A stretch of 64,000 nucleotides of DNA from the NCBI GenBank assembly GCA_024235015.1, contig JACKNG010000003.1, positions 472,397-536,396 of the forward strand, read 5' to 3'. A program made the translations under genes and the position numbers. Origin of the DNA: Gammaproteobacteria bacterium (lineage in GTDB: Bacteria > Pseudomonadota > Gammaproteobacteria > Ga0077536). Shown piece after piece: positions 27,434 through 64,000 of this stretch (within the stretch, counting starts at the first letter, position 1; each line of letters opens with the position of its first letter). The notes under the pieces were generated by a model that saw only the letters and a program-made list of their open reading frames with translations, searched no databases and was not told where the DNA came from.

Positions 27434-27463
27434 GCCGCGCAGTGCACGGTAGACTACGCGCCC

Positions 27464-27865: not shown

Positions 27866-27932
27866 CCCGCGGCGGGGCGGTGGCCGCCGGCACTTGCCGC
27901 AGATCTCGCCAGCGCGGGTCCATCGCATCTCG

Positions 27933-28322: not shown

Positions 28323-28541
28323 GCGTGGTCTCCCGGCCTCATCCGAATACTGCATGGTTGCCCCAACGCGCTAGAAACACGCGGGGACAGTATAGGAATA
28401 TCCGGCGCCGCGCGATGCGGCGCATATACCTGCACCGTACGCAGCGCTCATCGCGCAGCGCAAGCGGCGCCCCGACGCGCGATGCCGCGACACCCGTGGC
28501 TGGGCATCGTCGTCCCTCCTCCCCGGCTTCACCGGCCCGCC

Positions 28542-29924: not shown

Positions 29925-31450
29925 CAGGCCACCGCCTCGTCGCGCGGCGCCGCCCCAGCCGCGTCGGGCATCTCGATGTAGCGCGCGTAGCGTTCGCCGT
30001 AGGCGACCATGACGTCGCGCTCCTGGTAGTAGCAGCGCACGCGTTCGCGGATCGCGGCACTGGCCTCGGCATACCACTCGGCGTCGAGCAGCAGGCGCGC
30101 CACCGCCTGCGCCGTGGCCTCGGGGTCGGACAGGCGCACCACCGCGCCGGCCGCACCCAGCGGCGGCGACTCGTCGCTGCGTCCGAACAGGATTTCCCGG
30201 CACGAACCGACGTCGGTCGCCACCGAGGGAATGCCGACCGCCCCGGCCTCGAGCAGGACCAGCGGCTGGGCTTCGCTGATCGAGGTCAGCACGATGACGT
30301 CGATGCCGCCGAGGTAGTCGTCGAGCCGCACGCGCCCGGTGAAACTCACGCTATCGCCGAGGCCGAGATGCTCGACCATCGCCACGCATTCCTCGTAGTA
30401 CTCCTCGTCCTCCTCGGTCGGCCCCATCACCAGCGCGCGCAGCTCCGGCACCGACTCGCGCAGGCGTGCGACCGCGCGGAGGTAGGACTTGACGTCCTTG
30501 ATCGGCACCACGCGCCCGATCAGGGCGATGGTCGGTGCGCGGCCCTCGCGCGAATGGGTGAGTGCCGAGAAACGCGGGAAGTCGATGCCGTTCGGTACCA
30601 CGGCGAGCTTGGCCGGGTCGGCGCCGTCGGCGATCTGGAAGGCCTGGTTGCCCTCGTAGAGGGTGATGATCTCGTCGCAGGCGTCGTAGCAGGCGCGTGA
30701 ATAACCTTCGAAGGCGGCGATCCAGAAGTCCTTCAGATCGAGCGCCGGGCGATCGATGCCGAGCCCCACCAGGGGCAGCTCGAACAGCCAGTCGGCCATC
30801 GCGATCTCGATGCGCCGCTCGTTGGTGTAGATGCCATGCTCGGTGACGATGGCCGGGCGTCCGGTCTCGATGCGCGCCCGCGCGGCGAACAGGCCGGCGT
30901 AACCCGTCGACACCGTGTGATAGACCCGCGCCCGCGGCATCGGCGCCACGATCAGGCTGAACAGCCCGCCCATCAATGCCCGCCATGACCAGAAGTAATC
31001 GAGGAAGGAGGTCTCGTGGTAGGTGTCGCTGTACATGTCGACGAGGAGCTGCCAGGCCTCGCGCGAATCGAGCAGCACGTCCTGGCCGAGCTCGTGGCGG
31101 CGCGGACCGATGATGTCGATGATGCGCGCCAGCGCCTGCGCCCCGCCACCCTGGACGAGATCCTCGATCGGGGCCCGCAGGCTGGTCAGCAGGCGGCGCT
31201 GGCCACGTACGCGGCGGCGGCCGCGCGCCAGCCGCTGCAGCGTCACCGGGGTCACCGCGACGACGTTGTCGGGCAGCTCGTAGCGGTGCACGAGGTCGGC
31301 GCCGGGCGGCATCAGGGTGAGGATGTGGAACGACAGCCCCGGCAGGCCGCGGATCAGATCGTGGGTCCAGGTCGACACGCCGCCGGCGACGTAGGGATAG
31401 GTGCCCTCCAGCACCAGGCAGACGTCGGCGCTGTGCGCCGCCCGGTTCAC
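29924..31450 (-). CDS. pelF: PelF-like GT4 glycosyltransferase
   Basis: N-terminus SADVCLVLEGTYPYVAGGVSTWTHDLIRGL matches the PelF signature; GT4 fold with EX7E-like C-terminal region. Proposed GTG start at 31450 overlapping the pelE stop (GTGA) gives 508 aa. The ATG at 31492 would overlap pelE by 46 nt. Confidence 0.8.
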   Translation of the reverse strand: MNRAAHSADVCLVLEGTYPYVAGGVSTWTHDLIRGLPGLSFHILTLMPPGADLVHRYELPDNVVAVTPVTLQRLARGRRRVRGQRRLLTSLRAPIEDLVQGGGAQALARIIDIIGPRRHELGQDVLLDSREAWQLLVDMYSDTYHETSFLDYFWSWRALMGGLFSLIVAPMPRARVYHTVSTGYAGLFAARARIETGRPAIVTEHGIYTNERRIEIAMADWLFELPLVGLGIDRPALDLKDFWIAAFEGYSRACYDACDEIITLYEGNQAFQIADGADPAKLAVVPNGIDFPRFSALTHSREGRAPTIALIGRVVPIKDVKSYLRAVARLRESVPELRALVMGPTEEDEEYYEECVAMVEHLGLGDSVSFTGRVRLDDYLGGIDVIVLTSISEAQPLVLLEAGAVGIPSVATDVGSCREILFGRSDESPPLGAAGAVVRLSDPEATAQAVARLLLDAEWYAEASAAIRERVRCYYQERDVMVAYGERYARYIEMPDAAGAAPRDEAVA

Positions 31451-32583
31451 GCCCCCGCCTCCTGGCCGCGGCGCGGCGCGAGGCCGGCCCACATCCGCGC
31501 GCTGTCACTGAGCACGTCGCGCGCGGCGCGACCCTGTGCACCGCGTGCCATTTCCTGGGCCAGCGCGCGCACCGCGTCGAAGTCGCCGCGGCGGTAGTGC
31601 GCCTCGAGCAGCCAGTTGTCGATGCTCGGATGGACGCCGTGACGCTCGCGCGTGGCGAGCAGCCAGTCGCGCGCCGCGTCGACCTCGCCGGCGCGCAGCA
31701 GCAGGCGGCCGACGGCGACGCGCGAATAGAGGTCGTCCGGTTCGTCGTCGAGGTAGCGGCGGTAAGTCTCGATGGCGCGCGTGCGTACGCGCTGCGTGCG
31801 GTCGCCATCGAGCAGGCCGGAGAAGGCATAGCGATCGAGGTGGCGGGCGAGTTCGAGCAGGTGCTTCGGCGCGGGATCGCGCGCGATACGCTTGTCCAGC
31901 GTCATCACGCGGTCGGCGAACTGGCTCTCGAGGTTGGTGATGGCCGTCGCCGCCTGGATGCGCACCGAGTTGTCGGTGTCTTCCAGCGCGCGCTTGAGTA
32001 CCGGCGCGAACGGTGGTTCGAAGTGGCGGCTCATCATGCTGATGGCGAGCTGCTTCTGTTCGCGGCTGCCGTAGTTGATGACGTCGGCGAAGGGGATCAC
32101 CGGCGACTTCGACTCGCGTTGCCGCACCGTCAGCATCAGCTCGTCGTAGATGCGTTCGTAGATGCGCCGGCCGCGCTCGGGAAAGAGTTCCTTGTACCAG
32201 TCCTCGAATGGCCGCGAGCTGCGCAGGTGACGCACGTAGAGCACGAACGCGAGCCCCGTGCTGGCGCTGCCGAGCGGCCCGAACAGCGCGGTCGCGAAGG
32301 CCAGGTACCAGGCCCAGAAGATGCGCGCCGCGTTGCGCCGCCGGAACTCGCTCACGCGCAGGCCGGGCTCCGCGCGGTCGGCATGCAGGCGGTCCTGGAA
32401 GCGATGGGTGTAGAGCGCGGCGTAGGTCGTGCACGCGCCGACGGTCAGCAGGTGGATGACCAGGGCGTCCTGCCACACCGGCCGGGCCTGGACGAACTCC
32501 AGCACGGCCGGCAGGTCGGCGATGGTGGCGACCGCGCACATGCCGACGAAGGCGCTGTTCCAGGCCAGGTCGATGCGCGTCAT
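31447..32583 (-). CDS. pelE: PelE-like inner-membrane TPR protein
   Basis: 378 aa from ATG 32583 (MTRIDLAWNSAFVGMCAVATIADL...). Two N-terminal TM helices and a helical TPR-like C-terminal region. Position between pelD and pelF. Start overlaps the pelD stop (ATGA). Confidence 0.7.
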   Translation of the reverse strand: MTRIDLAWNSAFVGMCAVATIADLPAVLEFVQARPVWQDALVIHLLTVGACTTYAALYTHRFQDRLHADRAEPGLRVSEFRRRNAARIFWAWYLAFATALFGPLGSASTGLAFVLYVRHLRSSRPFEDWYKELFPERGRRIYERIYDELMLTVRQRESKSPVIPFADVINYGSREQKQLAISMMSRHFEPPFAPVLKRALEDTDNSVRIQAATAITNLESQFADRVMTLDKRIARDPAPKHLLELARHLDRYAFSGLLDGDRTQRVRTRAIETYRRYLDDEPDDLYSRVAVGRLLLRAGEVDAARDWLLATRERHGVHPSIDNWLLEAHYRRGDFDAVRALAQEMARGAQGRAARDVLSDSARMWAGLAPRRGQEAGA

Positions 32584-34849: not shown

Positions 34850-36436
34850 TCACAAGCGGATCATGAGGAAACCGCCGACGCTGTTCAGCTCGTTGGCGCC
34901 GCCGCGCGACGAGGTGATGCTCTGGTTGAAGCGCGCGCCGAGCTCGAGCCCGGGCAGCGGCTGCCAGGCGAGGTCCACGCCGAAATGGTGGCCGCGGCCG
35001 TTGTAACGATCGACGGTGTAGCCGCCGCGCACGCCGACGCGGACGTAATCGGTGAGCTGTTCGTTCCAGGCCAGCTGGAGCTGGTGCACCTCGCGATCGT
35101 TGAAGCCGATCGGCGCGTAGCGGTTGCCGGCAGCGTCGAAGCGCTCGCGCACGTTGCCGAACCGCTCGGTGTCGAAGTAGTACTCCAGCGTGATGCGCGG
35201 CGCGGCGTTCCACAGCGTGTAGGCGGTGGCGAGCTGCAGGCCCCAGGCGTCGGCCAGGGCGGCGTCGCCATCGAGGCCGTAACGGCTGCCGTGCAGGGCG
35301 GTTTCGAGCGTCCACGGTTCGTGCATGCGCCAGCGGTGGGTGAGCTCGGCGCGGTGACGGTAACCGCCATGGGCGATGCCCTCGACGAAGTCCCAGTAGG
35401 GTCGCCAGGCGTCGAGCCGGAAGCGCGTGGTGCCCGGGTTCCAGCCGCGCGCCCAGCCGAGGGTGAGTCCCGGCCGCCCGCCGCCCTCGTGGATCTCCAG
35501 CCGCCCCTCGCCGCCGCCCGGCACGGGCCGTTCGAGGTAGAGGCTGGCGAACTCGCGCCGCCCGCTGAACGACTCGACGAAGCCGGCCGGGTTCTGCACC
35601 TGGGGGTCGTCGACGTCGCGGTACTCGAAGCGCAGGCCGGCGACGGTGTCGGCGCCGGCGAAGGCGCGCGATTCGAGCACCCAGATGAGCTGCTCGTCCT
35701 CCTCCTTGACGTCGCTCAGGTCGAAACTCGCGCGCACCATGGGGCCGTACTCGTAGAGCAGCGCGGCCTTGCCCTCGATCATGAACGGCGCGTCGGCATC
35801 GAGGGCCAGCGCGCGGTTGTACAGCGCGATGGCATCGCGCCAGCGGCCGAGCTCGCGTTCCTGCTCGACCAGGTCGAGCAGGGTCTGCACGTCCTGCGGG
35901 TGACGTTCCATGAGATCACGCAGGCGGGCCCGGGCGCCGGTGCGATCGCCGGCGCGACCGCGGGTCAGGGCCTCGAGACGATCGAGGCGCAGCGCCGAAC
36001 CGTCGTCGACGGCGGCCGGCGCGACCGCCGCGGCGGCGCTGCGCACCAGCCAGATCTCGTGCACCCCGGGGCCGGCGCGCAATTCGACCCGCGCATCGCG
36101 CACCGGCTCGAGGTAGAGGCTGTCGAAGCCGTAGCGCAGGTCCTGGATCCAGCCCGGGTAGCGCTCGCCGAGCCCGGCCAGCACGCTGGCGTCGAAGGCG
36201 GCCGGGAAGCGCACCACCACGCCGCGGCCCGCGAGGTCGATGGCGACGTCGCCGCGCTGGGGGATCGGGATCACCAGGCGCAGGGCGCGCGGTTCGGCCG
36301 CGGCGCTGATCACCGGGACGGTCGGCGCGGTCGTCGCTGCCGGCGCGCCAACCGGCGCCTGCGCCGCCGCGCCGTGGGCCACGCCGGCGAGCAGCGACGC
36401 CAGCAGTGCCCGCCGTATCGACCGTACCGCGCTCAT
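34850..36436 (-). CDS. PelB C-terminal-like outer-membrane beta-barrel (porin) protein encoded as a separate ORF with its own signal peptide
   Basis: ATG at 36436 (MSAVRSIRRALLASLLAGVAHGAAAQAP, good Sec signal peptide) overlaps the stop of the upstream TPR ORF (ATGA). A TPR-like stretch is followed by an alternating amphipathic beta-strand pattern rich in aromatic residues (WRPYW..., LQLATAYTLW..., GVDLAWQPL...). 528 aa. The longer 788-aa ORF-table version is an antisense-type extension. Confidence 0.6.
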   Translation of the reverse strand: MSAVRSIRRALLASLLAGVAHGAAAQAPVGAPAATTAPTVPVISAAAEPRALRLVIPIPQRGDVAIDLAGRGVVVRFPAAFDASVLAGLGERYPGWIQDLRYGFDSLYLEPVRDARVELRAGPGVHEIWLVRSAAAAVAPAAVDDGSALRLDRLEALTRGRAGDRTGARARLRDLMERHPQDVQTLLDLVEQERELGRWRDAIALYNRALALDADAPFMIEGKAALLYEYGPMVRASFDLSDVKEEDEQLIWVLESRAFAGADTVAGLRFEYRDVDDPQVQNPAGFVESFSGRREFASLYLERPVPGGGEGRLEIHEGGGRPGLTLGWARGWNPGTTRFRLDAWRPYWDFVEGIAHGGYRHRAELTHRWRMHEPWTLETALHGSRYGLDGDAALADAWGLQLATAYTLWNAAPRITLEYYFDTERFGNVRERFDAAGNRYAPIGFNDREVHQLQLAWNEQLTDYVRVGVRGGYTVDRYNGRGHHFGVDLAWQPLPGLELGARFNQSITSSRGGANELNSVGGFLMIRL

Positions 36437-39400
36437 GAACCACCGCGCTCGGCCAGGACCTGGCGCGCGCGCCCCAGGCGCTCGGCATCGAGCAGCATGG
36501 TGACGTAGTCGGCGCGCAGGTGACCCTCGCCCGGGCGCTCGTCGAGCAAGGCCTCGAAAGCGGCCAGGGCAGCCTCTTCGTGGCCGAGCCGGTGCAGGGT
36601 CTGGGCACGCACCACGCGGGCGCGGAAACCCGGGTCCGCTGAGGTCGCGAGCAGGGCGAGGATGCGCTCGTAGTGCGGCTCGGCGCGGTTGTGGAAGCCG
36701 CGTTCCTCGAGCGCCTCGGCATAGAAGAAATGTGCCTCGTAGTCGTCGTCGATGCGCGCGAGGTAGCGCTCCAGGTACTGTTCGGCGTCGCCGCGACGCC
36801 CGGCATCGAAAGCGGCCAGGCCGACCTCGCGCAGCGCCCGCGGATCGTCCGGGACGATCTCCAGCAGCGCCAGCCAGGCGCGCTGCGCGACCCGCACGAG
36901 GTCGGCCTCGGAGGCGGTGCGCGCGGCCCAGTGCAGCATCGCCCGGCGCGGCGCGCGGGCGACGTACGCGGCGAGAAAGGCCTCCAACTCGCCGCGCGCG
37001 CCGGCGTCGAGCAACGCGCGCGCGTAGCGTTCCACCACCAGCGGCTCCGGTTGCGCGCCGCGCGCCGCGGCGGCCAGCAGCTCGGCGGCACGCCGCGGCG
37101 CACCGAGCTCGGCGAGCAGCGCCGCCCAGGCCGCGCGCGTTCGGCCGCTGCTCGCCGCCGCCCGCGCCGCCAGCCAGTCGAGGGCGGCCGGCGGCGGCCG
37201 CGGCCCCCACAACCACAACAGGGTGTCGACGCTCTCCCCGCCCGGCGCCTCGTCGGCGGCGAGGGCGAGATGAATGGCCACCGCGCCCGCCTTGTCGCCC
37301 GCTTCGAGCAGGCGCGTGGCAAGCAGGCGGCGCAGCGATCCGGGCAGGTGCGCGTCGCCGGCATGGACCCGCGCGAACGCGAGCAGGCCGCTGCTATCGC
37401 CACCCGCCGCGAGCCAGTCGACGTAGTGCTCGCCCCAACGCGCAGGGTTGGCGGCGACGAGTTCGTCGAGGACCGGGCCGACCGCGTCGCGCGCCGGGCT
37501 CGCCAGCAGGGCATCGCGATAGAGCGCGGCGAGGCCGGCATCGGTCTCGCCCGCGCGCAGGCGGGCGGCGACGAACTCGACGACGCGGGCGGCTGCACCG
37601 GCCTGGTCCGCGGCCGCCTCGAAGGCATAGAAGGCCTCGCGCCGCGCGGCCGCGCCACCCTGCGCCGCGGCAGCCTCGAGGTAGGGCAGCGCGCGCGCCG
37701 GCCCGCCCAGCTCGGCGAGGTCGAAGCGCCAGGTCGCGGCCAGGGCATCGCCGGGCGCGGCGGCATCCAGCCAGGCCGCGAGGCGCACGGCCACCCAGTC
37801 TGCATCGTGCTGCTGCAGGGCGAGATCGCGCCACTGGTAATAGGCGGCCTCGCGCGCCGCCGGTTCGCCGCCGCGGTCGGCCACGCTGGAAGCCAGCGCC
37901 GGCAGCAGCAGCTCGCCGCCGCCGAGACGCCCGAGGTCGTAGACGTAGTTGTCGTGCAGCGGGTCGGCTGGCCCGGCGGCGAGACGCGGGGCAACGAAGG
38001 CGAAGAAGGCCTCGCGCTCGTCGCTGGCGAGGCTGGCGTCGCGGAAGGCGTCGTACCACTGCACGGGGTCGCGTTCGACCAGGGTCGCGAGCAGGGTCTC
38101 GGCCTGCGGCCAGGCGCCGGCGTCGATGAGGTCGTAGGCGAGGGTGCGCGCCTGCACGGAGCCGGCGTCACCCGCCGCCAGGGTCGCCGCGACCAGGTGG
38201 TCGAAGCCGGCCGCGAGGCCGGCCAGGCCCTCGCGTACCGTGCGGCGCTGGCGCAGCAGTGCGAACAGGGCGTCCTGGAACAATTGCCGGCTGGTCGCAT
38301 CGTGGGCCACGCGCGGCGCGGTCAGGGCGACGGCCTGCTCGAAGCGCCCGGCGGCGTGGACCAGGCGCTGGGCCTCGAGATCGCGCACCGGCAGGCGCGC
38401 TCCGGCCCGCGCCGCGACGGCCTGCGCCAGGCCTTCGTCGTCGGCCGCGAGGGCGACCAGGCCGAGTTCGCACAGCAACGCGTCGACGCTGGCGGCCGGT
38501 GCGGCCGGCGCGCTGGCGCGCAGCCACGCGCGCACCGCGTCGCGCTCGCCGGCGCCGGCGGCGAGCAGCGCCCACGCCGCCTGCGCGGGGCCGTCGTCGC
38601 GGGCCACGAGCGCCGGGCCGAGGCGCGCGTAGCCGCGCGCGGCCTGGCCGAGGTCGTGGTAGACCCAGGCCAGCGCCGGGTAGTCGGCCGCCGGCCAGGC
38701 CGCGTCGGCGAGCAGTGCCGCGACGGTCGTCGGGTCACCCAGCGCCAGGGCCAGGTTGAGGCGGCGCAGGCGGGTCGCCGGTGGCGCGGTGTCGATCGCG
38801 GCGTAGGCGGCACGCGCACCCGCGACATCGCCGGCGAGCAGGCGGAACTCCGCCGCGCGTAGCGGCGCGGCGAGCGCGGGCGCGTCGACCAGTACCGGCG
38901 CCGCCAGCCGCGCCAGGGTGGCATCGCCGGCCTCGACCAGGGCGACCGCCAGGCCGCCGCCGACGAGCGCGGCGAGACGCCCTTCGTCACGCAGGGTGTG
39001 CAACAACGCGAGGGCGCGCGGCGACAAGGGCGGTACCGCGCGTCCACCCTGGCGCAGGGCACGCAAGCCGGTGTCGGCATCCAGGGTCGCCACGTAGTCG
39101 CTGAAGATGGCGGGCTCGCCCAGCACCGCGCCCAGCGCCAGCGCCGGCGCCAGCAGGTCGGCACGGCCCGGTCGCTGCGCCAGCACCATGCGCAAAGTCG
39201 GGCCGGCGGCCGCGGCCTGCTGCCGCGCGACCAGGGCGGCCAGGGCCTGCATGAAGCCGTCGGCGTCGTCGGCCGCCTCGACCCAGCGGCGCGCGACGTG
39301 CGCCATGGCGTCCGCGTGTCCGGCGGCAGCGTAGACGTCGAGGGCAAACAGGCTGGCATTGGCGTCGGGCCGGCCGCCGGCACGGCCGCGCCAGGAATCT

Positions 39401-39942
39401 AGCGCCGCCACCGCGCCGTCGACGTCGCCGTCGACCCACAGCAGGCGGGCCAGGCGCAGGGTTTCGGCGTCGTCCGCATCGCCACGTTCGACCAGGCGGG
39501 CGAGCGCGCCGGCTTCGCCATCGCGGTCGCCGGCAAAGGCGTAGAGGCTGGCCAGCTCGCGTACCAGCGCGGTGCTCGGCACGAGCTCGACGCGGCGCGC
39601 CAGCGCGGCGCGGTAGCGTGCCGGCTGCATGGTGTCGCGGTAGACCTCGAGCGCGAGGTCGTAGGCCTCGAGGTCGTCGGGGCGCTCGGCCAGGGTCCGG
39701 TCCATGGCCTCGACGGCGGCCTCGACCTCGCCCTGCTGCAGGTAGAGCTTGTTGAGCGGCACGACCACCGTGGGCCGTGCGCCGTGGGCCAGGAATTCGC
39801 GCTCGAAGCCACTCAGGGCATCGCGGTAGCGCTTGGCCTTGTAATACATGAGCGCGAGTTCCTGTCCGCGCGGCACCAGCAGCACGCTGAGCGCGAGCGC
39901 CGCGACACTCAGCGTGACGAGGAAGACGACGTGGCGCCACAT
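36433..39942 (-). CDS. pelB: PelB-like TPR-repeat scaffold protein (N-terminal TM anchor + about 1100 aa of TPR), lacking the porin domain
   Basis: 1169 aa. N-terminal MWRHVVFLVTLSVAALALSVLLV TM helix followed by uniform helical Ala/Leu-rich TPR-like repeats through to the C-terminus (…AEALEERGFHNRAEPHYERILALL…). The stop at 36433 overlaps the next ATG. Confidence 0.75.
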   Translation of the reverse strand: MWRHVVFLVTLSVAALALSVLLVPRGQELALMYYKAKRYRDALSGFEREFLAHGARPTVVVPLNKLYLQQGEVEAAVEAMDRTLAERPDDLEAYDLALEVYRDTMQPARYRAALARRVELVPSTALVRELASLYAFAGDRDGEAGALARLVERGDADDAETLRLARLLWVDGDVDGAVAALDSWRGRAGGRPDANASLFALDVYAAAGHADAMAHVARRWVEAADDADGFMQALAALVARQQAAAAGPTLRMVLAQRPGRADLLAPALALGAVLGEPAIFSDYVATLDADTGLRALRQGGRAVPPLSPRALALLHTLRDEGRLAALVGGGLAVALVEAGDATLARLAAPVLVDAPALAAPLRAAEFRLLAGDVAGARAAYAAIDTAPPATRLRRLNLALALGDPTTVAALLADAAWPAADYPALAWVYHDLGQAARGYARLGPALVARDDGPAQAAWALLAAGAGERDAVRAWLRASAPAAPAASVDALLCELGLVALAADDEGLAQAVAARAGARLPVRDLEAQRLVHAAGRFEQAVALTAPRVAHDATSRQLFQDALFALLRQRRTVREGLAGLAAGFDHLVAATLAAGDAGSVQARTLAYDLIDAGAWPQAETLLATLVERDPVQWYDAFRDASLASDEREAFFAFVAPRLAAGPADPLHDNYVYDLGRLGGGELLLPALASSVADRGGEPAAREAAYYQWRDLALQQHDADWVAVRLAAWLDAAAPGDALAATWRFDLAELGGPARALPYLEAAAAQGGAAARREAFYAFEAAADQAGAAARVVEFVAARLRAGETDAGLAALYRDALLASPARDAVGPVLDELVAANPARWGEHYVDWLAAGGDSSGLLAFARVHAGDAHLPGSLRRLLATRLLEAGDKAGAVAIHLALAADEAPGGESVDTLLWLWGPRPPPAALDWLAARAAASSGRTRAAWAALLAELGAPRRAAELLAAAARGAQPEPLVVERYARALLDAGARGELEAFLAAYVARAPRRAMLHWAARTASEADLVRVAQRAWLALLEIVPDDPRALREVGLAAFDAGRRGDAEQYLERYLARIDDDYEAHFFYAEALEERGFHNRAEPHYERILALLATSADPGFRARVVRAQTLHRLGHEEAALAAFEALLDERPGEGHLRADYVTMLLDAERLGRARQVLAERGGS

Positions 39943-39966: not shown

Positions 39967-42261
39967 TCACGGCGCCGCCGCCAGCGCGGCGTCGACGCGG
40001 GCGATGGTGAAACGCACCGGGGCGTAGGCGGCCTCGCCGAGGCTGAAACGCAGCCGGCCGGCAGCGTCGGCGACGACCTCGAAGCGCCGCGGCGCGGGCC
40101 CGTCCACCACCGTCACCACGTAGTGCTGGCCGGGCTGTCCCTGCCAGCTCATCTCGCCCTCGCCGTAACCGCCGGCGGTGGCCTCGACGTGCCCGGCGGC
40201 GAGACTGCAATCGTGCACGTCCCAGCGCGATTCGACCAGGTAGAGCGGCGCCGCGACACCCGGCGCGGCGCCGAGCGCCACGCGCGGCGTCGTCACCGCG
40301 GCATCGAGCGCGACGTAGAGGCTGCCCTGGTAGCGCCGCCGCCCGATCACGCCGTGCGAGCCGGCCCAGTCGACGTCGCGCTGGTCGGCGTCGTCGAAGC
40401 GCAGCGTCTGCAGGCCGCCACGGTCGTGCACCGTCCACGTCGCTGGCCCTGCGCTGACCAGGCGGGTGGTGAAGAAGCCGGCGCCGATGCTGGCGTAGCG
40501 GCTGGTCTCGATCGGGATCAGGGAATGGCGGCGGACCCACTGCAGGTTCTTCAGCAGCGCGCGCAGCGCCGCCTGCCGCTCGCCGGAATACATGTGGTAG
40601 TAGACGTTGGCGGCACGCACGCGCCGCGGCGACTCGGTGCGTTCGAGGGTCTCCGGCAGGAAACCGAAGGCGTAGTACCGGCTGCGCCACAGATCGGTGT
40701 AGGTGTTCTCGTTGCTGTTGCTCGAGTAGACCTGCCAGTACGGTCCGATCCGCCGCCCGACCGGGGCGACGAAGGCATAGGAGGGGAAATCGCCGTCGAA
40801 ACGCGAGTCGCCGCCGTTGATGTTGCCGAGACCGGCGGCGGCGGTGGCGGCCATCACCGCTGCGAAAGGCAGGGTGTCGCCAGACCACTGGATCACCCGG
40901 CAACGCTTGCCGGGTGGCGCCAGGCGCTCGACGATGGCGACCGAGCCGCCGACCTCGAGGTTGATGTCGAACGGCGCGAGCGCATAGGCGCGGGGCACGT
41001 AGGCGGCGGTGTAGCTGACCTCGTCCTCGTCTTCGGCGAGTAGCTGGGCGTGCTGCTTCTCGAGGCCCTCCCAGCCGAAGTAGCGCCCACCCTGCATGGT
41101 TTCGTAGCGCGGCAGGTAGGCCGCCTCGCGCTGCGCTTCGTAGTGTTCGAAGAAACCCCAGGCGAAGGGATGGGTATGGGTGTGCGTACCGAGCTCGACC
41201 TGCGGCAGGGCGAACAGGTCGCGCGCCGCGGCACGCGCGGCCTCGTCGCCGTACCAGGCGGGATCGAGGTCGGCGGTGATCGGCGAGACCGTCACCGGCA
41301 GGTCGGGGAAGGGACGGATGGCTTCCTCCAGGATCACCCGCGCCGAGATCACCTGGTGGCCGGCATACTCGTCGGCCAGCGAGACGTTACGCCAGCCGTC
41401 GCCGTCGATGTGGCTGTAGTAGATGCGCCGCCCGGCCAGGGTCGTCGTATCCGGCTTGGGCAGGTCGTCGGTGGCAAAGGCGGCGCGCAGGAAGGCGAAG
41501 GGATCGATAATCCACTGCCGCTGCGCGTTCTCCACGCCGCGATAGAGGGCGTAGTCGGCGGCGACGTAGCCACCGGCCGCGCCGGTGACCACGAGATCGG
41601 CGACCTCGGCCGCTCCCGGCTCCGGGCGCACCGCGAGGTGGCTGGTCGCGCCGGGTACGCGCCGGGTCATGACGAAATAGGGCAGCGGCGCGACGAGCGG
41701 GCGTTCGAAACCGATCAACGCCGGGTCGGCGCGCTCGACGCGGGCATCCGCGCCGACCCGCTCGGCGCTGTCGTCGACCGCGATGCCGAGGTGGGTGAGC
41801 ACGCGGTCGAGGCGTTCGCGGTCGACGTAGCGGCCGAAGCGATCGGTCGCGGCGACGAGGTCGCCGAGGATGGCCACGCGCTTGCCGGCGTTCAGCACGC
41901 CCGCCAGCCAGTCGAGGAAGGCGTCGGGGTCGGCGACGTCGGGCGAACGCTGCCACATCACCACCCCGCGCACGTCATCGCGCGCGCCGATGTCGGGCAG
42001 CGGCTGGGCGAGGTCGTGGAACTCGAAGACGAGGCCGAGGTGATTGGCCGGCATTTCCAGGAAGCGATGCAGCGAGGTGGCGTGCCGCGGCCCGCGGCGC
42101 GCATCGTAGAGCGCGACGACGACCCGCGGTACCGCCGCACCCGGCGCGGCGGCGGGCGCCGCCCGTAGCGGCGCGACCGCGAGCAGGCACCAGCACGCGC
42201 ACGCCAGCACGATGCCGCACGAGGTACGGCCACGGCCGTGGGTCTGGTCTGCCTGGATCAT
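39967..42261 (-). CDS. pelA: PelA-like polysaccharide deacetylase (CE4 domain) protein
   Basis: Signal peptide (IVLACACWCLLAVAPLRAAPA). CE4-like motifs YYSHIDGDGW and ELGTHTHTHP. 765 aa versus about 948 for P. aeruginosa PelA; the N-terminal region shows no obvious GH114 motif. ATG 42261 chosen as start. Confidence 0.7.
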   Translation of the reverse strand: MIQADQTHGRGRTSCGIVLACACWCLLAVAPLRAAPAAAPGAAVPRVVVALYDARRGPRHATSLHRFLEMPANHLGLVFEFHDLAQPLPDIGARDDVRGVVMWQRSPDVADPDAFLDWLAGVLNAGKRVAILGDLVAATDRFGRYVDRERLDRVLTHLGIAVDDSAERVGADARVERADPALIGFERPLVAPLPYFVMTRRVPGATSHLAVRPEPGAAEVADLVVTGAAGGYVAADYALYRGVENAQRQWIIDPFAFLRAAFATDDLPKPDTTTLAGRRIYYSHIDGDGWRNVSLADEYAGHQVISARVILEEAIRPFPDLPVTVSPITADLDPAWYGDEAARAAARDLFALPQVELGTHTHTHPFAWGFFEHYEAQREAAYLPRYETMQGGRYFGWEGLEKQHAQLLAEDEDEVSYTAAYVPRAYALAPFDINLEVGGSVAIVERLAPPGKRCRVIQWSGDTLPFAAVMAATAAAGLGNINGGDSRFDGDFPSYAFVAPVGRRIGPYWQVYSSNSNENTYTDLWRSRYYAFGFLPETLERTESPRRVRAANVYYHMYSGERQAALRALLKNLQWVRRHSLIPIETSRYASIGAGFFTTRLVSAGPATWTVHDRGGLQTLRFDDADQRDVDWAGSHGVIGRRRYQGSLYVALDAAVTTPRVALGAAPGVAAPLYLVESRWDVHDCSLAAGHVEATAGGYGEGEMSWQGQPGQHYVVTVVDGPAPRRFEVVADAAGRLRFSLGEAAYAPVRFTIARVDAALAAAP

Positions 42262-42502
42262 GGTGTCGCTGTTCGCTTCCTGCCGCGGCGGCATCGTCGC
42301 GCCGGGCCGTGTCGGCTGTTGCGCCGCATCAACGGGGTAGCGGCCCTTCGCGCCCGCAATGAACCCCGGCGGCGGGATAGTAGTCGCTCGCCGCCGGCGT
42401 TAGAACCGGGCCGGTGCGGGGGCACCGCCGGCGCACGGTGATAGCATGCGCGGCGGCCGGCCGCGCGTGCGACCGGCGCCACCCTGAAGCCCGGAGAAGA
42501 CC

Positions 42503-46832: not shown

Positions 46833-47214
46833 GACCGCAGTGGCACGCGGCAGCCCCGCCGCCTTCTCAGGCCACGTCTGTGGCGTGCTGCGACGGCCGC
46901 CGGCACGGCGCGACGTACGTTCCATCACAGGGGTCGTCGCGTTCCGGCTGGAACCGCTAGCGTCGGGTCGTGGGTGTGCGGGGCCCGCGGGGGTGGTCCG
47001 CCGGTCGCGCTACGGCGGCGTGCTCGGCCCGGATGTCACGGCGGTCGGGCGAATGTAACAAATTGTCACGTTTCAGCCGGCGGCCGGCGGTCGACTGAAC
47101 CCGCTCGCCGATTCCGCTATCGTCCTCCTGTCGGAGTCGTAGCCTCGGCCAGCCATGCGACAGCGCGGCCAGCGTGGGGTGCCCTGTCAGGATCGCAACG
47201 GAGGGGGAATCCTC

Positions 47215-50200
47215 ATGGTCGCCAGGTATAGCCGCGCCATCGCGCTCAGTCTCCTAGTCACCGCTGCCGGCACGCGTGCGGCCATGGCGGACGTTGTCAG
47301 CAGTTGCGTCTTCACGGGCGATCTCGGTACGGCTTGGAGTGTCGCCGCCAATTGGGACTGCTTCGGGCTCCCCGGGCCGCCAAACAACGCACCGCCACAA
47401 CGCTGGTTCGCGGTCATTCCCCAGGACGCCATCGCACACCTCGACCAGGACGCCGCCATCGACAAGCTCGCCATCGACAGTGGCGGCCAGTTGCACATCG
47501 ACAACATCCGGCACCTGCGCCTCGAGAACAGCGGTGAGCCCGACTCCGGCGCCCACCAGATCACCGGGACCCTGTTTCTGGATTCGGTCGGCAACCTCAC
47601 CGATCTCGAGTTCGCCGGCGGCCACGGCATCGGGACGCTCAGCCACGGCCTCATCCAGCTCTCCAACAATACCCAGAACCGTATCCGCGGCTTCAGCGGG
47701 GGTGGCGCCGATACGCTGGTCCTCGACGGCGTCGACGTGCGCGGCGCCGGGCAGTTCGGCGTCAACTCGCTCGTCATCTATACCAATGCACTGGTCGACG
47801 CCAACGTCGCGAACCCGCTGGTCGTCGATCCCGACGAGACCGGCGGCGCCAAGTTCACCAACGACGGTATCCTGCAATCGAGCGCCAACGGCACGCTGGT
47901 GCTGCAGTTCGGCACGTTCGACAACCGCAACGGCACGATCCGGGCGCTCGACGATGGCCAGACCGTGCTCAGCACGGTGACCGTCGAGGGTGGGCAGCTG
48001 ACCACGGGAGGCAACGGCCGCGTTCGTGTGTCCGGCGTCGCCGTGCTCGATGGCAGCGCGGATCTCGTCAACGACGCCGTCATCGACGTGCCCAACTTCC
48101 AGGCCCTCGACCTCCTCGGTCACATCACCAACAACGGCACCATCAACCTGCAGTCGGTCGGCAACGTCACCAGCCTGCGCCTGCGCGACGACGTCACCCT
48201 CGACGGCAACGGCACCGTCAATCTCAGCAACAACTCCGAGAACGAGTTGCGCTCGACCGGCGGCGTCTTCACCCTCACCAACGAGAGCAACCTCCTGCGC
48301 GGCTCGGGACGACTCGGCGCCAACACCCTCGGCCTCGTCAACCGCGGCACTGTCCGCGCCGACCAGCCCAACGCCCTCGTCGTCGACCCCGACGATGCAC
48401 GCGGCGTCGTCAACGCCGGCCTCATGGAAGCCACCGCCGGCGGCACGCTCACCCTCGCCGACGGCCTGTTCCAGAACTTCGAGGGACCCGTCGACGGCAC
48501 CATCCAGGCCACCGACGGCACCGTCGAGGTCAACGGCGCCACCGTCGATGGCGGCAACGTCGCCACCCATGGCAGCGCCACCCTGCGTCTCGTCAACGGC
48601 ACCGTCCACGGCGGCACCCTCGTCAACGGCGCCGGCAGCACCGTGCGTGCCGCTTCCGGCACCTCCCGCCTCGGCGGTGCCGTCACCTTCGACACCGGCT
48701 CGTTCGTCGTCGTCGACAACTTCGCCACCCTCGACCTCGAGGCCAGCGCCGGCGCCACCAGCTACCTCAACGACGGCCGCATCGCCCTCAACTCCGTCGG
48801 CAACGTCACCACCCTGCGCCTGCTCGGCGACGTCACCCTCGACGGCAGCGGCGAACTCCTGCTCAACGGCAACACCGAGAACTACGTCCGCGGCCTCGCC
48901 GGCACCGAGCGCCTCACCCTCAACGGCCAACTCGTCCACGGCGGCGGACGCCTCGGCAACAACCTCCTGAGCCTCACCCTCGACGCCAACACCGTCCTCG
49001 ACGCCGACCTCGCCGGCCGTATCCTCTTCGTCGACCCCGCCGCCTCCGGCGACGTCACCAACCTCGGCCTCATGCGCGCCTCCAACGGCGGCACCCTCGA
49101 ACTCGGCGACGGCCAGGTCTTCAATGCCGGCGGCACCATCGCCGCCGACGACGCCTCGCGCGTGCGCCTGAGCAACGTCAACATCGCCGGCGGCCACCTC
49201 GACTCGACCGGCTCGGGCCGCTTCGAGATCGTCGGCAACACCGTCCTCGACGGCATCGGCCTGGTCAACGACGCCGTCATCGACGTGCCCAACTTCCAGG
49301 CCCTCGACCTCCTCGGTCACATCACCAACAACGGCACCATCAACCTGCAGTCGGTCGGCAACGTCACCAGCCTGCGCCTGCGCGACGACGTCACCCTCGA
49401 CGGCAACGGCACCGTCAATCTCAGCAACAACTCCGAGAACGAGTTGCGCTCGACCGGCGGCGTCTTCACCCTCACCAACGAGAGCAACCTCCTGCGCGGC
49501 TCGGGACGACTCGGCGCCAACACCCTCGGCCTCGTCAACCGCGGCACTGTCCGCGCCGACCAGCCCAACGCCCTCGTCGTCGACCCCGACGATGCACGCG
49601 GCGTCGTCAACGCCGGCCTCATGGAAGCCACCGCCGGCGGCACGCTCACCCTCGCCGACGGCCTGTTCCAGAACTTCGAGGGACCCGTCGACGGCACCAT
49701 CCAGGCCACCGACGGCACCGTCGAGGTCAACGGCGCCACCGTCGATGGCGGCAACGTCGCCACCCATGGCAGCGCCACCCTGCGTCTCGTCAACGGCACC
49801 GTCCACGGCGGCACCCTCGTCAACGGCGCCGGCAGCACCGTGCGTGCCGCTTCCGGCACCTCCCGCCTCGGCGGTGCCGTCACCTTCGACACCGGCTCGT
49901 TCGTCGTCGTCGACAACTTCGCCACCCTCGACCTCGAGGCCAGCGCCGGCGCCACCAGCTACCTCAACGACGGCCGCATCGCCCTCAACTCCGTCGGCAA
50001 CGTCACCACCCTGCGCCTGCTCGGCGACGTCACCCTCGACGGCAGCGGCGAACTCCTGCTCAACGGCAACACCGAGAACTACGTCCGCGGCCTCGCCGGC
50101 ACCGAGCGCCTCACCCTCAACGGCCAACTCGTCCACGGCGGCGGACGCCTCGGCAACAACCTCCTGAGCCTCACCCTCGACGCCAACACCGTCCTCGACG

Positions 50201-52653
50201 CCGACCTCGCCGGCCGTATCCTCTTCGTCGACCCCGCCGCCTCCGGCGACGTCACCAACCTCGGCCTCATGCGCGCCTCCAACGGCGGCACCCTCGAACT
50301 CGGCGACGGCCAGGTCTTCAATGCCGGCGGCACCATCGCCGCCGACGACGCCTCGCGCGTGCGCCTGAGCAACGTCAACATCGCCGGCGGCCACCTCGAC
50401 TCGACCGGCTCGGGCCGCTTCGAGATCGTCGGCAACACCGTCCTCGACGGCATCGGCCTGGTCAACGACGCCGTCATCGACGTGCCCAACTTCCAGGCCC
50501 TCGACCTCCTCGGTCACATCACCAACAACGGCACCATCAACCTGCAGTCGGTCGGCAACGTCACCAGCCTGCGCCTGCGCGACGACGTCACCCTCGACGG
50601 CAACGGCACCGTCAATCTCAGCAACAACTCCGAGAACGAGTTGCGCTCGACCGGCGGCGTCTTCACCCTCACCAACGAGAGCAACCTCCTGCGCGGCTCG
50701 GGACGACTCGGCGCCAACACCCTCGGCCTCGTCAACCGCGGCACTGTCCGCGCCGACCAGCCCAACGCCCTCGTCGTCGACCCCGACGATGCACGCGGCG
50801 TCGTCAACGCCGGCCTCATGGAAGCCACCGCCGGCGGCACGCTCACCCTCGCCGACGGCCTGTTCCAGAACTTCGAGGGACCCGTCGACGGCACCATCCA
50901 GGCCACCGACGGCACCGTCGAGGTCAACGGCGCCACCGTCGATGGCGGCAACGTCGCCACCCATGGCAGCGCCACCCTGCGTCTCGTCAACGGCACCGTC
51001 CACGGCGGCACCCTCGTCAACGGCGCCGGCAGCACCGTGCGTGCCGCTTCCGGCACCTCCCGCCTCGGCGGTGCCGTCACCTTCGACACCGGCTCGTTCG
51101 TCGTCGTCGACAACTTCGCCACCCTCGACCTCGAGGCCAGCGCCGGCGCCACCAGCTACCTCAACGACGGCCGCATCGCCCTCAACTCCGTCGGCAACGT
51201 CACCACCCTGCGCCTGCTCGGCGACGTCACCCTCGACGGCAGCGGCGAACTCCTGCTCAACGGCAACACCGAGAACTACGTCCGCGGCCTCGCCGGCACC
51301 GAGCGCCTCACCCTCAACGGCCAACTCGTCCACGGCGGCGGACGCCTCGGCAACAACCTCCTGAGCCTCACCCTCGACGCCAACACCGTCCTCGACGCCG
51401 ACCTCGCCGGCCGTATCCTCTTCGTCGACCCCGCCGCCTCCGGCGACGTCACCAACCTCGGCCTCATGCGCGCCTCCAACGGCGGCACCCTCGAACTCGG
51501 CGACGGCCAGGTCTTCAATGCCGGCGGCACCATCGCCGCCGACGACGCCTCGCGCGTGCGCCTGAGCAACGTCAACATCGCCGGCGGCCACCTCGACTCG
51601 ACCGGCTCGGGCCGCTTCGAGATCGTCGGCAACACCGTCCTCGACGGCATCGGCCTGGTCAACGACGCCGTCATCGACGTGCCCAACTTCCAGGCCCTCG
51701 ACCTCCTCGGTCACATCACCAACAACGGCACCATCAACCTGCAGTCGGTCGGCAACGTCACCAGCCTGCGCCTGCGCGACGACGTCACCCTCGACGGCAA
51801 CGGCACCGTCAATCTCAGCAACAACTCCGAGAACGAGTTGCGCTCGACCGGCGGCGTCTTCACCCTCACCAACGAGAGCAACCTCCTGCGCGGCTCGGGA
51901 CGACTCGGCGCCAACACCCTCGGCCTCGTCAACCGCGGCACTGTCCGCGCCGACCAGCCCAACGCCCTCGTCGTCGACCCCGACGATGCACGCGGTTTCG
52001 TCAACGAGGGCACCCTCGAGGCCGTCGGGATAGGCACACTCACCCTGGCGTCAGGTGCCTTCTCGACCAGTGGCGTCGTCACGGTCGCGTCGACCGCTAA
52101 GCTCCTGCGTCAAGGTCTCTACCGTCAGACCGCCGGTGTGACCCAGGTCGACGGCCTGCTCACGGCGACGGGCGGCGTCCTCATCGAAGGTGGACTGCTG
52201 GGCGGCCACGGCACCGTCGCGGGTGACGTCGACAACGGCGGGCAAGTCGGCCCGGGCGGCTCGATCGGCCAACTCGACATCAGCGGGAACTACGTCCAGC
52301 GCAGTGCCGGCGAACTGCTGATCGAGATTGCCGGGCTCGGCGTCAACGACGTTCTCGCCGTCACCGGCGAGGCGAGCCTGGGCGGCCTGGTCGCGGTCGA
52401 TCTCGATCCAGGCTACCTGCCGGCGCTCGGCGACAGCTTCGTCTTCCTGCTCGCCGACACGATTGCGAACGGCTTCGACGGTATCGCCTGCATCAGCTGC
52501 AACGGCCGCCAGTTCGAGTTGCTCTACGGTACCGATTTCGCCGCGCTGGTCGTGACCTCGGCGGTCCCGCTACCACCCGCCCTGTGGATGACACTGGGGG
52601 CACTGGTCACGCTCGCCGCGCGCCGGCGCGACGCCACGCCCGGGACGCGCTGA
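47215..52653 (+). CDS. Giant secreted beta-helical repeat protein (adhesin-like), 1812 aa, with PEP-CTERM-like C-terminal sorting signal
   Basis: RBS GGAGGGGG then ATG 47215; signal peptide MVARYSRAIALSLLVTAAGTRAAMA. About 200-aa Gly/Asn/Thr/Leu-rich modules (…SVGNVT.LRL.DDVTLDG.G…LVVDPDDARGVVNAGL…GGTLTL.DG…), beta-helix-like. C-terminal autotransporter-associated beta-strand-repeat-like segment (GQLDISGNYVQRSAGELLIEIAG...LAVTGEASLGGLVAVDL) and tail VPLPPALWMTLGALVTLAARRRD. Confidence 0.85.
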   Translation: MVARYSRAIALSLLVTAAGTRAAMADVVSSCVFTGDLGTAWSVAANWDCFGLPGPPNNAPPQRWFAVIPQDAIAHLDQDAAIDKLAIDSGGQLHIDNIRHLRLENSGEPDSGAHQITGTLFLDSVGNLTDLEFAGGHGIGTLSHGLIQLSNNTQNRIRGFSGGGADTLVLDGVDVRGAGQFGVNSLVIYTNALVDANVANPLVVDPDETGGAKFTNDGILQSSANGTLVLQFGTFDNRNGTIRALDDGQTVLSTVTVEGGQLTTGGNGRVRVSGVAVLDGSADLVNDAVIDVPNFQALDLLGHITNNGTINLQSVGNVTSLRLRDDVTLDGNGTVNLSNNSENELRSTGGVFTLTNESNLLRGSGRLGANTLGLVNRGTVRADQPNALVVDPDDARGVVNAGLMEATAGGTLTLADGLFQNFEGPVDGTIQATDGTVEVNGATVDGGNVATHGSATLRLVNGTVHGGTLVNGAGSTVRAASGTSRLGGAVTFDTGSFVVVDNFATLDLEASAGATSYLNDGRIALNSVGNVTTLRLLGDVTLDGSGELLLNGNTENYVRGLAGTERLTLNGQLVHGGGRLGNNLLSLTLDANTVLDADLAGRILFVDPAASGDVTNLGLMRASNGGTLELGDGQVFNAGGTIAADDASRVRLSNVNIAGGHLDSTGSGRFEIVGNTVLDGIGLVNDAVIDVPNFQALDLLGHITNNGTINLQSVGNVTSLRLRDDVTLDGNGTVNLSNNSENELRSTGGVFTLTNESNLLRGSGRLGANTLGLVNRGTVRADQPNALVVDPDDARGVVNAGLMEATAGGTLTLADGLFQNFEGPVDGTIQATDGTVEVNGATVDGGNVATHGSATLRLVNGTVHGGTLVNGAGSTVRAASGTSRLGGAVTFDTGSFVVVDNFATLDLEASAGATSYLNDGRIALNSVGNVTTLRLLGDVTLDGSGELLLNGNTENYVRGLAGTERLTLNGQLVHGGGRLGNNLLSLTLDANTVLDADLAGRILFVDPAASGDVTNLGLMRASNGGTLELGDGQVFNAGGTIAADDASRVRLSNVNIAGGHLDSTGSGRFEIVGNTVLDGIGLVNDAVIDVPNFQALDLLGHITNNGTINLQSVGNVTSLRLRDDVTLDGNGTVNLSNNSENELRSTGGVFTLTNESNLLRGSGRLGANTLGLVNRGTVRADQPNALVVDPDDARGVVNAGLMEATAGGTLTLADGLFQNFEGPVDGTIQATDGTVEVNGATVDGGNVATHGSATLRLVNGTVHGGTLVNGAGSTVRAASGTSRLGGAVTFDTGSFVVVDNFATLDLEASAGATSYLNDGRIALNSVGNVTTLRLLGDVTLDGSGELLLNGNTENYVRGLAGTERLTLNGQLVHGGGRLGNNLLSLTLDANTVLDADLAGRILFVDPAASGDVTNLGLMRASNGGTLELGDGQVFNAGGTIAADDASRVRLSNVNIAGGHLDSTGSGRFEIVGNTVLDGIGLVNDAVIDVPNFQALDLLGHITNNGTINLQSVGNVTSLRLRDDVTLDGNGTVNLSNNSENELRSTGGVFTLTNESNLLRGSGRLGANTLGLVNRGTVRADQPNALVVDPDDARGFVNEGTLEAVGIGTLTLASGAFSTSGVVTVASTAKLLRQGLYRQTAGVTQVDGLLTATGGVLIEGGLLGGHGTVAGDVDNGGQVGPGGSIGQLDISGNYVQRSAGELLIEIAGLGVNDVLAVTGEASLGGLVAVDLDPGYLPALGDSFVFLLADTIANGFDGIACISCNGRQFELLYGTDFAALVVTSAVPLPPALWMTLGALVTLAARRRDATPGTR
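48067..51996. repeat. Tandem array of nucleotide-identical 1197-bp (399-codon) repeats: 3 full copies (48067, 49264, 50461) plus a 339-bp partial 4th copy, inside the giant gene
   Basis: Period measured from recurrence of gacgccgtcatcgacgtgcccaacttccagg at 48073/49270/50467/51664. Identical translated blocks on both strands in the ORF track (three identical 212-aa and three identical 136-aa antisense ORFs). Copy 4 diverges at about 51997. Confidence 0.9.
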
Positions 52654-63010: not shown

Positions 63011-63151
63011 GCAATCCCCCCTTGTTTCGTGTGCGAATTATTCAACGACGTTGGTGCGGGATTGTAATCGAGCCACCGTCGCCGCCTAGGCGCGGCCCGG
63101 CACACGCGTTAGAGTGCACTGCCTTGTCCCCCCTCTGCGAGGAACGCTTTG

Positions 63152-64000
63152 ATGACAACCACCGTGCTCTACGACGATCGCGTCACCGCGGTCGCCGGCG
63201 CCCGGGTCGCGGGCGATCACCTGTGGCTGGCGCCCGACGCGATGGCCGCCGCCACCGGCTGGAAGCTCGAGCCCCAGGGCCTGTGCCGCGGCGATGCCTG
63301 CGTGCGCACCGACGCCACCTGGGTCGACGCCGACGGCCACGTCGATCTCACCGCCTTCGCCACCCACATGGGCCAGCCCGTCGTCCACGACGGCGATGCC
63401 TGGGCCGTTGGCGAGTCGGCCGGTGTACGCCGCGACGCCCTGCTCTCGACCCAGGCCCCCGACTTCGAACTGCCCGATCTCGACGGCAAGCTGCACAAGC
63501 TGTCGGACTACCGTGGCAAGAAGGTCTACCTCTATTCCTGGGGCTCCTACTGAGGCTGCAGCTTTGACCTGCCCGTGTGGCAGGCAATCTACGAAGAACT
63601 GCGCGGCGCTGGACTTGAAATCATCGCCGTGGCCTTCGACGCAGCCGGTACCGCCGCGGTCGAAGCGAAAATCCGTTGCCCGGACATTGCCGAGCGGCCG
63701 ACCATGATCGCCGACCTCATGGGCTGGAGCCCGGAGCTGTGGGCGCAGCAGGCGCCGCCGACCTATCCCTGCCTCATCGACGAAACCCACCTCGTCGCCG
63801 AACTCTACGGCATGGTCAACGTGCCGCAGGGCGTGTGGATCGACGAGCAGGGACGCATCGTGCGCCCGGCCGAGTCGGCCGGCACCATCGACATGGTGCG
63901 GCACCTCAACCGCGAGACGCTGGAACTACCGGATGCGGCGGTGAAGGCAGGCGCCAGCGCCCGCATGGCCTACATCGACGCCCTGCGCGACTGGGTGAAG
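63152..64000 (+). CDS. Thioredoxin-fold (TlpA/redoxin-like) protein with in-frame TGA (63551-63553) at the redox-motif position: candidate selenocysteine-containing oxidoreductase; 3' end beyond window
   Basis: The ORF reads ...LHKLSDYRGKKVYLYSWGSY-TGA-GCSFDLPVWQAIYEELRGAGLEIIAVAFD...LIDETHLVAELYGMVNVPQGVWIDEQGRIVRPAE... in one frame with no further stop to the window end. The flanking sequence matches the TlpA/ResA/redoxin pattern (…L..y.GK.v.l.FWasWC.pC…v.ID..G.iv), and TGA falls where the first Cys of the redox motif is expected (W-G-S-Y-U-G-C). RBS GAGGAA before ATG 63152. Confidence 0.5.
63562..63588 (+). promoter_or_regulatory. Candidate bacterial SECIS-like hairpin downstream of the in-frame UGA (CCUGCC-CGUGU-GGCAGG, extendable with a bulged A)
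   Basis: Perfect 6-bp stem at 63568-63573 / 63579-63584 with a 5-nt loop containing GU. Stem begins 15 nt after the UGA. Lower extension cUUG(a)...CAAg. Confidence 0.3.

Follow-up and report, generated by a model that had tools for sequence, protein, structure and literature searches.

The window analyzed here, a stretch of 64,000 nucleotides, very probably carries at its 3′ end a real selenocysteine (Sec)-encoding gene for a thioredoxin-fold redox protein, and an ordinary example of its family. We think it highly likely, from comparison with related sequences, that a single selenoprotein of 390 residues, presumably cytoplasmic, is made from the region, as opposed to a stub of 133 residues and the product of a separate gene behind it. 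The core proposal of the initial annotation of this DNA, namely a selenoprotein in which UGA stands for the first catalytic Cys of a TlpA/redoxin fold and is followed by a SECIS hairpin, thus finds strong comparative support. The gene belongs to an already catalogued U-G-C selenoprotein family, of which the spacing between Sec and Cys is the defining feature and not a novelty of this locus.

The open reading frame starts on the + strand with an ATG at 63152 and runs through 133 sense codons to an in-frame TGA (63551–63553), past which the same frame stays open for a further 149 codons, up to base 64000 at the window edge; the initial annotation had described this arrangement, and translation confirms it. 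The residues around the TGA read ...KKVYLYSWGSY-U-GCSFDLPVWQ..., and two Pfam models, AhpC-TSA (PF00578; E = 7.6e-15; 55.4 bits, cutoff 26) and Redoxin (E = 1.3e-9), match residues 100–237, crossing the TGA, in agreement with the thioredoxin-fold similarity earlier noticed beyond that codon. TGA is the usual stop codon in the window, ending 37 of the 46 called genes, so that any recoding would be site-specific and the genetic code unchanged. The window edge falls inside the gene (Table 1), and the full-length protein of 390 amino acids was rebuilt from a contig of the same population (L001), which is 99.5% identical to the window at the nucleotide level over 1428 nt and is the only source of the C-terminal 107 residues.

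Table 1. Features of the predicted selenoprotein gene, in window coordinates
Feature	Position	Strand	Remarks
Shine-Dalgarno-like GAGGA	63139..63143	+	8 nt 5′ of ATG, direct sequence reading
Predicted selenoprotein gene, ResA-like WAxxUGC family	63152..64000	+	First 849 nt (283 codons) of 1173 nt/390 residues
N-terminal beta-rich domain, ~95 residues, motif GLCRxxACV	63152..63436	+	Invariant Cys pair
C45 and C50	63284..63286 and 63299..63301	+	Both invariant in 62 full-length homologs
Thioredoxin-fold (ResA/TlpA/AhpC-TSA-like) domain, residues 100–237, across UGA	63449..63862	+	Pfam PF00578, PDB matches
UGA codon, U134, presumed attacking residue of U-G-C redox motif	63551..63553	+	Cys-aligned in full-length homologs
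TGC, Cys136, presumed resolving Cys of U-G-C motif	63557..63559	+	62/62 Cys forms, 77/77 Sec forms
Candidate bacterial SECIS core hairpin: 5′ arm CCUGCC 63568–63573, apical loop CGUGU 63574–63578, 3′ arm GGCAGG 63579–63584	63568..63584	+	Comparative pairing; overlaps codons D-L-P-V-W-Q-A
Cys207, YPCLID strand of thioredoxin fold, nearly invariant	63770..63772	+	Invariant in alignment A1; at least 90% of A3 sequences

The evidence that carries the Sec reading comes from relatives of the gene. The matches from a homolog search across 5.8 billion proteins fall into two classes: full-length proteins of 360–420 aa with 45–57% identity to the query, and fragments of ~249 aa with 71–99% identity, which are confined to the part 3′ of the TGA and thereby bear the signature of gene callers cutting the gene at the UGA. 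The full-length homologs have Cys exactly in the TGA column (SWGSYCGCSFDLPVWQ or TWASWCGCRLDLPVWQ), and C-G-C is thus the usual motif of the family; it is found in 61 of 62 Cys forms, U-G-C is found in 77/77 Sec forms, and the G-C is invariant. The alignment of this column, which the initial annotation had proposed as a check, yields either Cys or TGA. It also refutes the view, held there, that the U-x-C spacing is unusual and could mark a new variant, since U-G-C/C-G-C is near-invariant and the curated model NF041054 is named for the motif.

At the nucleotide level, the comparison comprised 84 sequences, namely the window, three contigs from the same population (L001–L003) and 80 related loci drawn from one-genome-per-species contigs. 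The codon in question is TGA in 80 of the 84 sequences and in 76 of the 80 related loci; the remaining four loci, all betaproteobacterial, have TGC. TGA forms occur in Gammaproteobacteria, in Binataceae and other “delta” lineages, and in Methylomirabilota, Tepidiformaceae (Chloroflexota), Myxococcota, Vulcanimicrobiota and others. When the window gene is compared with ten gammaproteobacterial orthologs, dN/dS lies at 0.07–0.36 over 45 codons before the TGA and at 0.07–0.18 over 35 codons after it, with synonymous differences near saturation (pS 0.4–0.77). Closer to the window itself, the TGA is present in all three of L001–L003, which were assembled independently and share 99.4–99.8% nucleotide identity with the window, and in three more assemblies (L089–L091) the same 133-residue ORF was called, ending at that TGA; in six independent metagenome assemblies of near-identical populations, then, the TGA is either present or marks the end of the called upstream ORF.

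Just downstream of the UGA lies a hairpin that probably serves as a bacterial SECIS element. It starts, as the initial annotation had it, 15 nt after the UGA, in the sense that its first base is the 15th nucleotide and 14 nt lie between. In the bSECIS model, as quoted in PMC13188914, the loop has 3–9 nt with a G within its first two positions, the upper stem has 4–16 bp, 16–37 nt separate the UGA from the loop, and the minimum free energy is at most −7.5 kcal/mol. The window hairpin has a 5-nt loop with G-U at loop positions 2–3, a 6-bp stem and 20 nt between UGA and loop, and its energy ranges from −9.3 kcal/mol for the core to −11.3 kcal/mol. The comparison with the bSECIS consensus that had been suggested earlier therefore comes out in favor of the hairpin on all four criteria, as it does for the downstream hairpins of 228 of the 1175 TGA triplets in the window (19%). 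Folding of the single sequence (66 nt) likewise gives z = 0.08 relative to shuffled sequences, no excess over what is expected by chance in DNA of 70% GC. As the hairpin alone is not above chance, the case for it depends on comparison with relatives.

When the six pairs of the stem are followed through 74 distinct Sec-form sequences, 444 of 444 cells prove to be paired. The stem has undergone 35 changes on one side only, each giving G·U, and three double changes from C-G to U-A, all three at the closing pair, which is the sole stem pair with true two-sided covariation. Unguided, RNAalifold predicts the same helix; the alignment fold revealed no conserved lower stem or bulged U. Given that the stem overlaps conserved codons, the conservation of the hairpin must in part reflect constraint on the protein, and the Cys forms offer a way to separate the two. 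The L, V and Q encoded by the hairpin are each invariant in 77/77 Sec forms, and the P changes in these forms only to S, with the pairing kept through a G·U wobble. The same positions in 62 Cys forms hold L in 38 and P in 24, V in 45 and other residues in 17, and Q in 33, E in 27 and R in two; Fisher tests of Sec against Cys forms give p = 2e-10, 3e-7 and 6e-13 for L, V and Q, respectively, values that are uncorrected for phylogeny and may be inflated by phylogenetic clustering of the Sec forms. The same peptide is encoded by three distinct Cys-form genes, in all of which the Gln codon is CAA while the Leu codons are mixed; these genes fold to between −0.1 and −8.0 kcal/mol (the Cys form L087 to −8.0 kcal/mol) versus −11.3 kcal/mol in the window, and an equivalent hairpin is absent from the TGC loci encoding DPPVWE. 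The hairpin is, in short, lost or weakened in Cys forms.

Several other explanations of the TGA need to be weighed against this picture. A pseudogene, in which a Cys codon (TGC or TGT) has recently mutated to TGA and left only a truncated 133-residue protein, would require no more than a one-base change from the TGC that four related loci retain, and would sit well with a window in which no Sec machinery is seen; we nevertheless regard it as very improbable, given a TGA shared by 80 of 84 sequences in several phyla, purifying selection on both halves of the gene at near-saturated synonymous divergence, and a downstream hairpin conserved in TGA forms only. The recently inactivated Cys codon, which the initial annotation had entertained alongside a new variant, is accordingly excluded by the occurrence of TGA across phyla and by dN/dS values of ~0.07–0.36. 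A sequencing or assembly error at the TGA might be suspected on account of the apparently metagenome-assembled source (the nearest named protein comes from a gammaproteobacterial MAG), but the independent assemblies described above either carry the TGA or end the 133-residue ORF at that very codon, making such an error extremely improbable. Public annotation, for its part, implies two genes, the 133-aa ORF and a 249-aa “hypothetical protein” initiated at an internal Met or Val (MWQAIY...), and gene callers have made exactly this split in dozens of clusters, as in P0016, “hypothetical protein H6977_09760”. Such a split, however, puts strand beta1 and helix alpha1 of the thioredoxin fold on separate pieces, neither of which keeps the active site; the 21 nt treated as “intergenic” preserve the frame and code for the invariant G-C; and Cys-form homologs are single polypeptides. 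A pair of separate genes is therefore highly unlikely.

A subtler alternative is that the UGA is recoded, only not as Sec, being read either as Cys, by a SelB-like factor and a tRNA-Sec-like tRNA-Cys, or as Trp through near-cognate read-through. Cys-recoding systems exist, Sec insertion at U134 is deduced here from sequence, and the window contains no visible Sec-specific gene: ARAGORN, Rfam and tblastn revealed no selA, selB, selD or tRNA-Sec within its 64 kb. The tblastn searches used approximate E. coli SelA, SelB and SelD queries against the window and all loci and were intended to provide leads only; they gave no match in the window. ARAGORN did call two 95-nt tRNAs, one at 36302–36396 (“Cys-GCA”) and one at 42386–42480 (“Asp-AUC”), the first of which could be taken to favor Cys insertion. 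Considered as candidates for a tRNA-Sec or allo-tRNA, both calls were rejected as false positives, with no Rfam match at the gathering score or even at E ≤ 1, and the call at 36302–36396 sits within signal-peptide-like coding sequence. Canonical Sec genes, on the other hand, were found near orthologs, where tblastn matches were confirmed with curated HMMs: in L031, SelD (TIGR00476, 290 bits against a cutoff of 125) is encoded 2.3 kb away from the ortholog, and in L061, SelB (TIGR00475, 327 bits, cutoff 242) is encoded on the ortholog's contig. Whereas SelD by itself could also be there for the synthesis of selenouridine, SelB has its role in Sec decoding only. As both curators and selenoproteome surveys further class the family as Sec-containing, we consider recoding to another amino acid improbable and retain Sec as the preferred reading of U134. 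Other TGA-interrupted genes were also sought in the window, and none was convincing, the candidates being either neighboring genes that share a frame or antisense frames of high GC3.

The architecture of the protein can be approached through its Cys-form homologs. An AlphaFold2 model of one of them (P0001), based on a 62-sequence alignment (pLDDT 94.8, pTM 0.92), has three parts: a beta-rich N-terminal domain, a thioredoxin fold and a helical, TPR-like C-terminal domain. C45 and C50 lie in this model on neighboring strands (43–46 and 49–51), and the CGC motif is located between strand 128–134 and helix 139–157 (alpha1). Only the central domain was matched by Foldseek, with ResA (1su9, 2f9s, 1st9) at E of about 1e-9 and target-normalized TM-scores of 0.71–0.75, and the N-terminal domain had no PDB counterpart in this search. 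By sequence, the closest solved relatives in the PDB are Etrx1/2, ResA and TlpA; in the HMMER alignment to the CSIC of Etrx, the CG-C requires a one-residue gap, so that U-G-C amounts to a CxxC with one residue fewer. The N-terminus, MTTTVLYDDRVTAVAGARVAGDH, has by inspection no hydrophobic segment and forms part of the folded beta-rich domain in the model; the protein is therefore probably cytoplasmic, unlike ResA and TlpA.

Taken together, these features suggest a plausible route from decoding to chemistry. During translation, the hairpin would act as a bacterial SECIS: as the ribosome arrives at the UGA, SelB·GTP·Sec-tRNA(Sec) would bind the apical loop with its conserved G-U, and selenocysteine would be delivered at the UGA to give U134. 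Placed at the N-terminal end of helix alpha1, U134 could then serve as the attacking selenolate, with a disulfide, a sulfenate or a peroxide as its target. C136 would resolve the intermediate to produce a strained selenenylsulfide, which may in turn be re-reduced by a cellular thiol system or via the N-terminal Cys pair, such that the protein would act as a thiol/selenol-disulfide oxidoreductase or as a thiol peroxidase-type reductant. A bolder idea is that this is a mechanistically distinct cytoplasmic selenoenzyme, which combines a strained U-G-C selenenylsulfide with an N-terminal CxxxxC relay and whose chemistry or substrate is unlike those of ResA/TlpA or the peroxiredoxins. We view this as rather unlikely, though worth stating, and if true it would hold for the known family as a whole and would not be peculiar to this locus.

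The surroundings of the gene add little. Its neighbors in the window are oxidoreductases of various kinds (a GMC oxidoreductase, two SDRs, a PQQ dehydrogenase and a luciferase-like monooxygenase), and among the 80 loci no neighbor is held in common beyond closely related genomes, so that genomic context gives no clue to function; a convergent ORF downstream of the gene, seen on contigs of at most 3 kb, has no Pfam match. As biology, the locus offers little that is new, being a further member of a family with a curated model and published selenoproteome tables. Its value lies more in annotation, where public calls split the gene at the UGA into the 133-aa ORF and the 249-aa “hypothetical protein” across dozens of protein clusters, which leaves Sec use understated in uncultured Gammaproteobacteria, Binatota, Methylomirabilota and Chloroflexota. 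The divergence between Sec and Cys forms at D-L-P-V-W-Q furthermore makes for a clean case of a coding-region SECIS constraining protein sequence, and the NF041054/UGC family, catalogued so far from sequence only, is a reasonable target for biochemistry.

As to identity, the full-length protein scores 307.2 bits against NCBIfam NF041054, an equivalog model with a cutoff of 300, and the 283 aa within the window score 228.5 bits. NF041054 is “ResA-like WAxxUGC motif-containing protein”, or WAxxUGC_long, a curated model named after the motif. The window protein shares with it the W-[AG]-x-x-U-G-C motif, PF00578, the alternation of Sec and Cys at the first position and the “long” three-domain architecture; it differs from the WAxxUGC of the name at the second position, where its W130-G-S-Y-U134-G-C136 has G and not A, a trait of 35 of the 77 Sec forms. 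Judging from shared domain and motif, NF041054 appears to be the “UGC-containing Prx-like/TlpA” family, which has the same Pfam domain and has figured in selenoproteome surveys since 2008 (PMC2398784, PMC9312934, PMC13188914). The Sargasso Sea survey had one “UXC” Prx-like selenoprotein (PMC1088965), and the GOS survey listed “Prx-like (UGC-containing)” under pfam00578 and the motif UGC, counted 46 Sec and 855 Cys sequences for it, and found it to be commoner in non-marine samples (PMC2398784). A 2022 review describes such families as mostly bioinformatic predictions whose functions are not established. A literature search found the term “WAxxUGC” in no paper, and the literature searched held no experiments on the NF041054/UGC family.

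Comparison with better-known systems places both the RNA element and the protein. Like SECIS elements of the E. coli fdhF type and the bSECISearch model, the window hairpin is situated within coding sequence, immediately 3′ of the UGA, and has a small apical loop with G-U; relative to the fdhF type, its conserved core is short, comprising 6 bp and a 5-nt loop. With ResA, TlpA and Etrx (PDB 1st9, 1su9, 1jfu, 4hqs), the protein shares the thioredoxin-fold topology, an active site at the N-terminus of helix alpha1 and similar flanks (WASWC..C..LP). It departs from these proteins in having U-G-C, one residue shorter than their CxxC and with the first Cys replaced by Sec, in its additional N-terminal (CxxxxC) and C-terminal (TPR-like) domains, and, by inspection, in having no evident signal peptide or membrane anchor where they are extracytoplasmic; its scores against the ResA HMM NF002854 (68–69.5 bits, cutoff 170) and the TlpA HMM NF047696 (31 bits, cutoff 230) are correspondingly below threshold. 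The PrxQ and PrxU HMMs also place it far below their cutoffs. Its likeness to Sec-containing peroxiredoxins and Prx-like UxxC selenoproteins consists in an AhpC/TSA-type thioredoxin fold, an active-site Sec and Cys homologs that far outnumber the Sec forms. In place of the peroxiredoxin signature P-x-x-x-T/S-x-x-C(U), however, it reads V-Y-L-Y-S-W-G-S-Y-U, with no Pro at −7 and with G131 at −3, and its predicted Sec occupies a CxxC-like position, whereas that of Sec-peroxiredoxins occupies the peroxidatic position.

Public gene calls systematically cut the target selenoprotein gene at its UGA, in P0016 ("hypothetical protein H6977_09760") and roughly 50 other protein clusters. The split leaves a 133-aa ORF and a 249-aa piece called either a "hypothetical protein" or a "TPR repeat protein", as on L001, a near-identical contig from the same population. 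Among the related loci fetched for comparison, two carry genes of the Sec pathway beside the ortholog: selD on L031, a gammaproteobacterial MAG whose record label, "Klebsiella pneumoniae", is probably wrong, and selB on L061, an Acidiferrales MAG.

In some cases one genome contains two or three Sec-form paralogs of the gene, all of which keep both the TGA and the hairpin. A homolog in the Cys form (TGC at the same column), at L087:1501-2628, still folds into a hairpin (-8.0 kcal/mol) where the Sec forms have their SECIS, with U-A in place of a C-G pair; this hairpin may be a relic from a Sec-form ancestor.

Features of the target gene, its homologs and the window
Feature	Location	Strand	Remark
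Split calls of target gene	L001:580-981 and L001:1003-1752		public gene calls
selD	L031:6793-7692	-	2.3 kb upstream of target ortholog
selB	L061:10257-11297	+	~9 kb downstream of target ortholog
Sec-form paralogs, one genome	L020, L022		OZ257136.1
Sec-form paralogs, one genome	L015, L033		CAMATU01
Sec-form paralogs, one genome	L010, L034, L035		JBLFWZ01
ORF, 1832 aa	window 47155-52653	+	GC3 0.92
ORF, 1169 aa	window 36433-39942	-	GC3 0.90
ORF, 775 aa	window 39967-42294	-	GC3 0.90
Overlapping high-GC3 ORF pair	window 28542-30203 and 29924-31492	-	
Overlapping high-GC3 ORF pair	window 26441-27973 and 27933-28355	-	
ARAGORN "tRNA" Cys-GCA	window 36302-36396	-	95 nt
ARAGORN "tRNA" Asp-AUC	window 42386-42480	-	95 nt

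Elsewhere in the window, the 1832-aa ORF, without a match in a Pfam search, contains four 100%-identical copies with a period of 1197 nt (at 48064, 49261, 50458 and 51655), each unit consisting of two sub-repeats with a mutual identity of 64% and spacings of 639 and 558 nt. It could encode a giant repeat protein, or the repeats could have been collapsed or duplicated in assembly. The 1169-aa and 775-aa ORFs are neighbors that share a reading frame, with a TGA and a short gap between them, and neither has a Pfam match at E<=1e-5. The same-strand overlaps of 40-280 nt within the two overlapping pairs may be genuine, or they may stem from frameshifts or wrongly called starts.

Both tRNA calls were rejected as false positives of GC-rich DNA, since Rfam returned no tRNA at either site even at E<=1 and the Cys-GCA call sits within signal-peptide-like coding sequence. 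The length shared by the two calls is that of tRNA-Sec.
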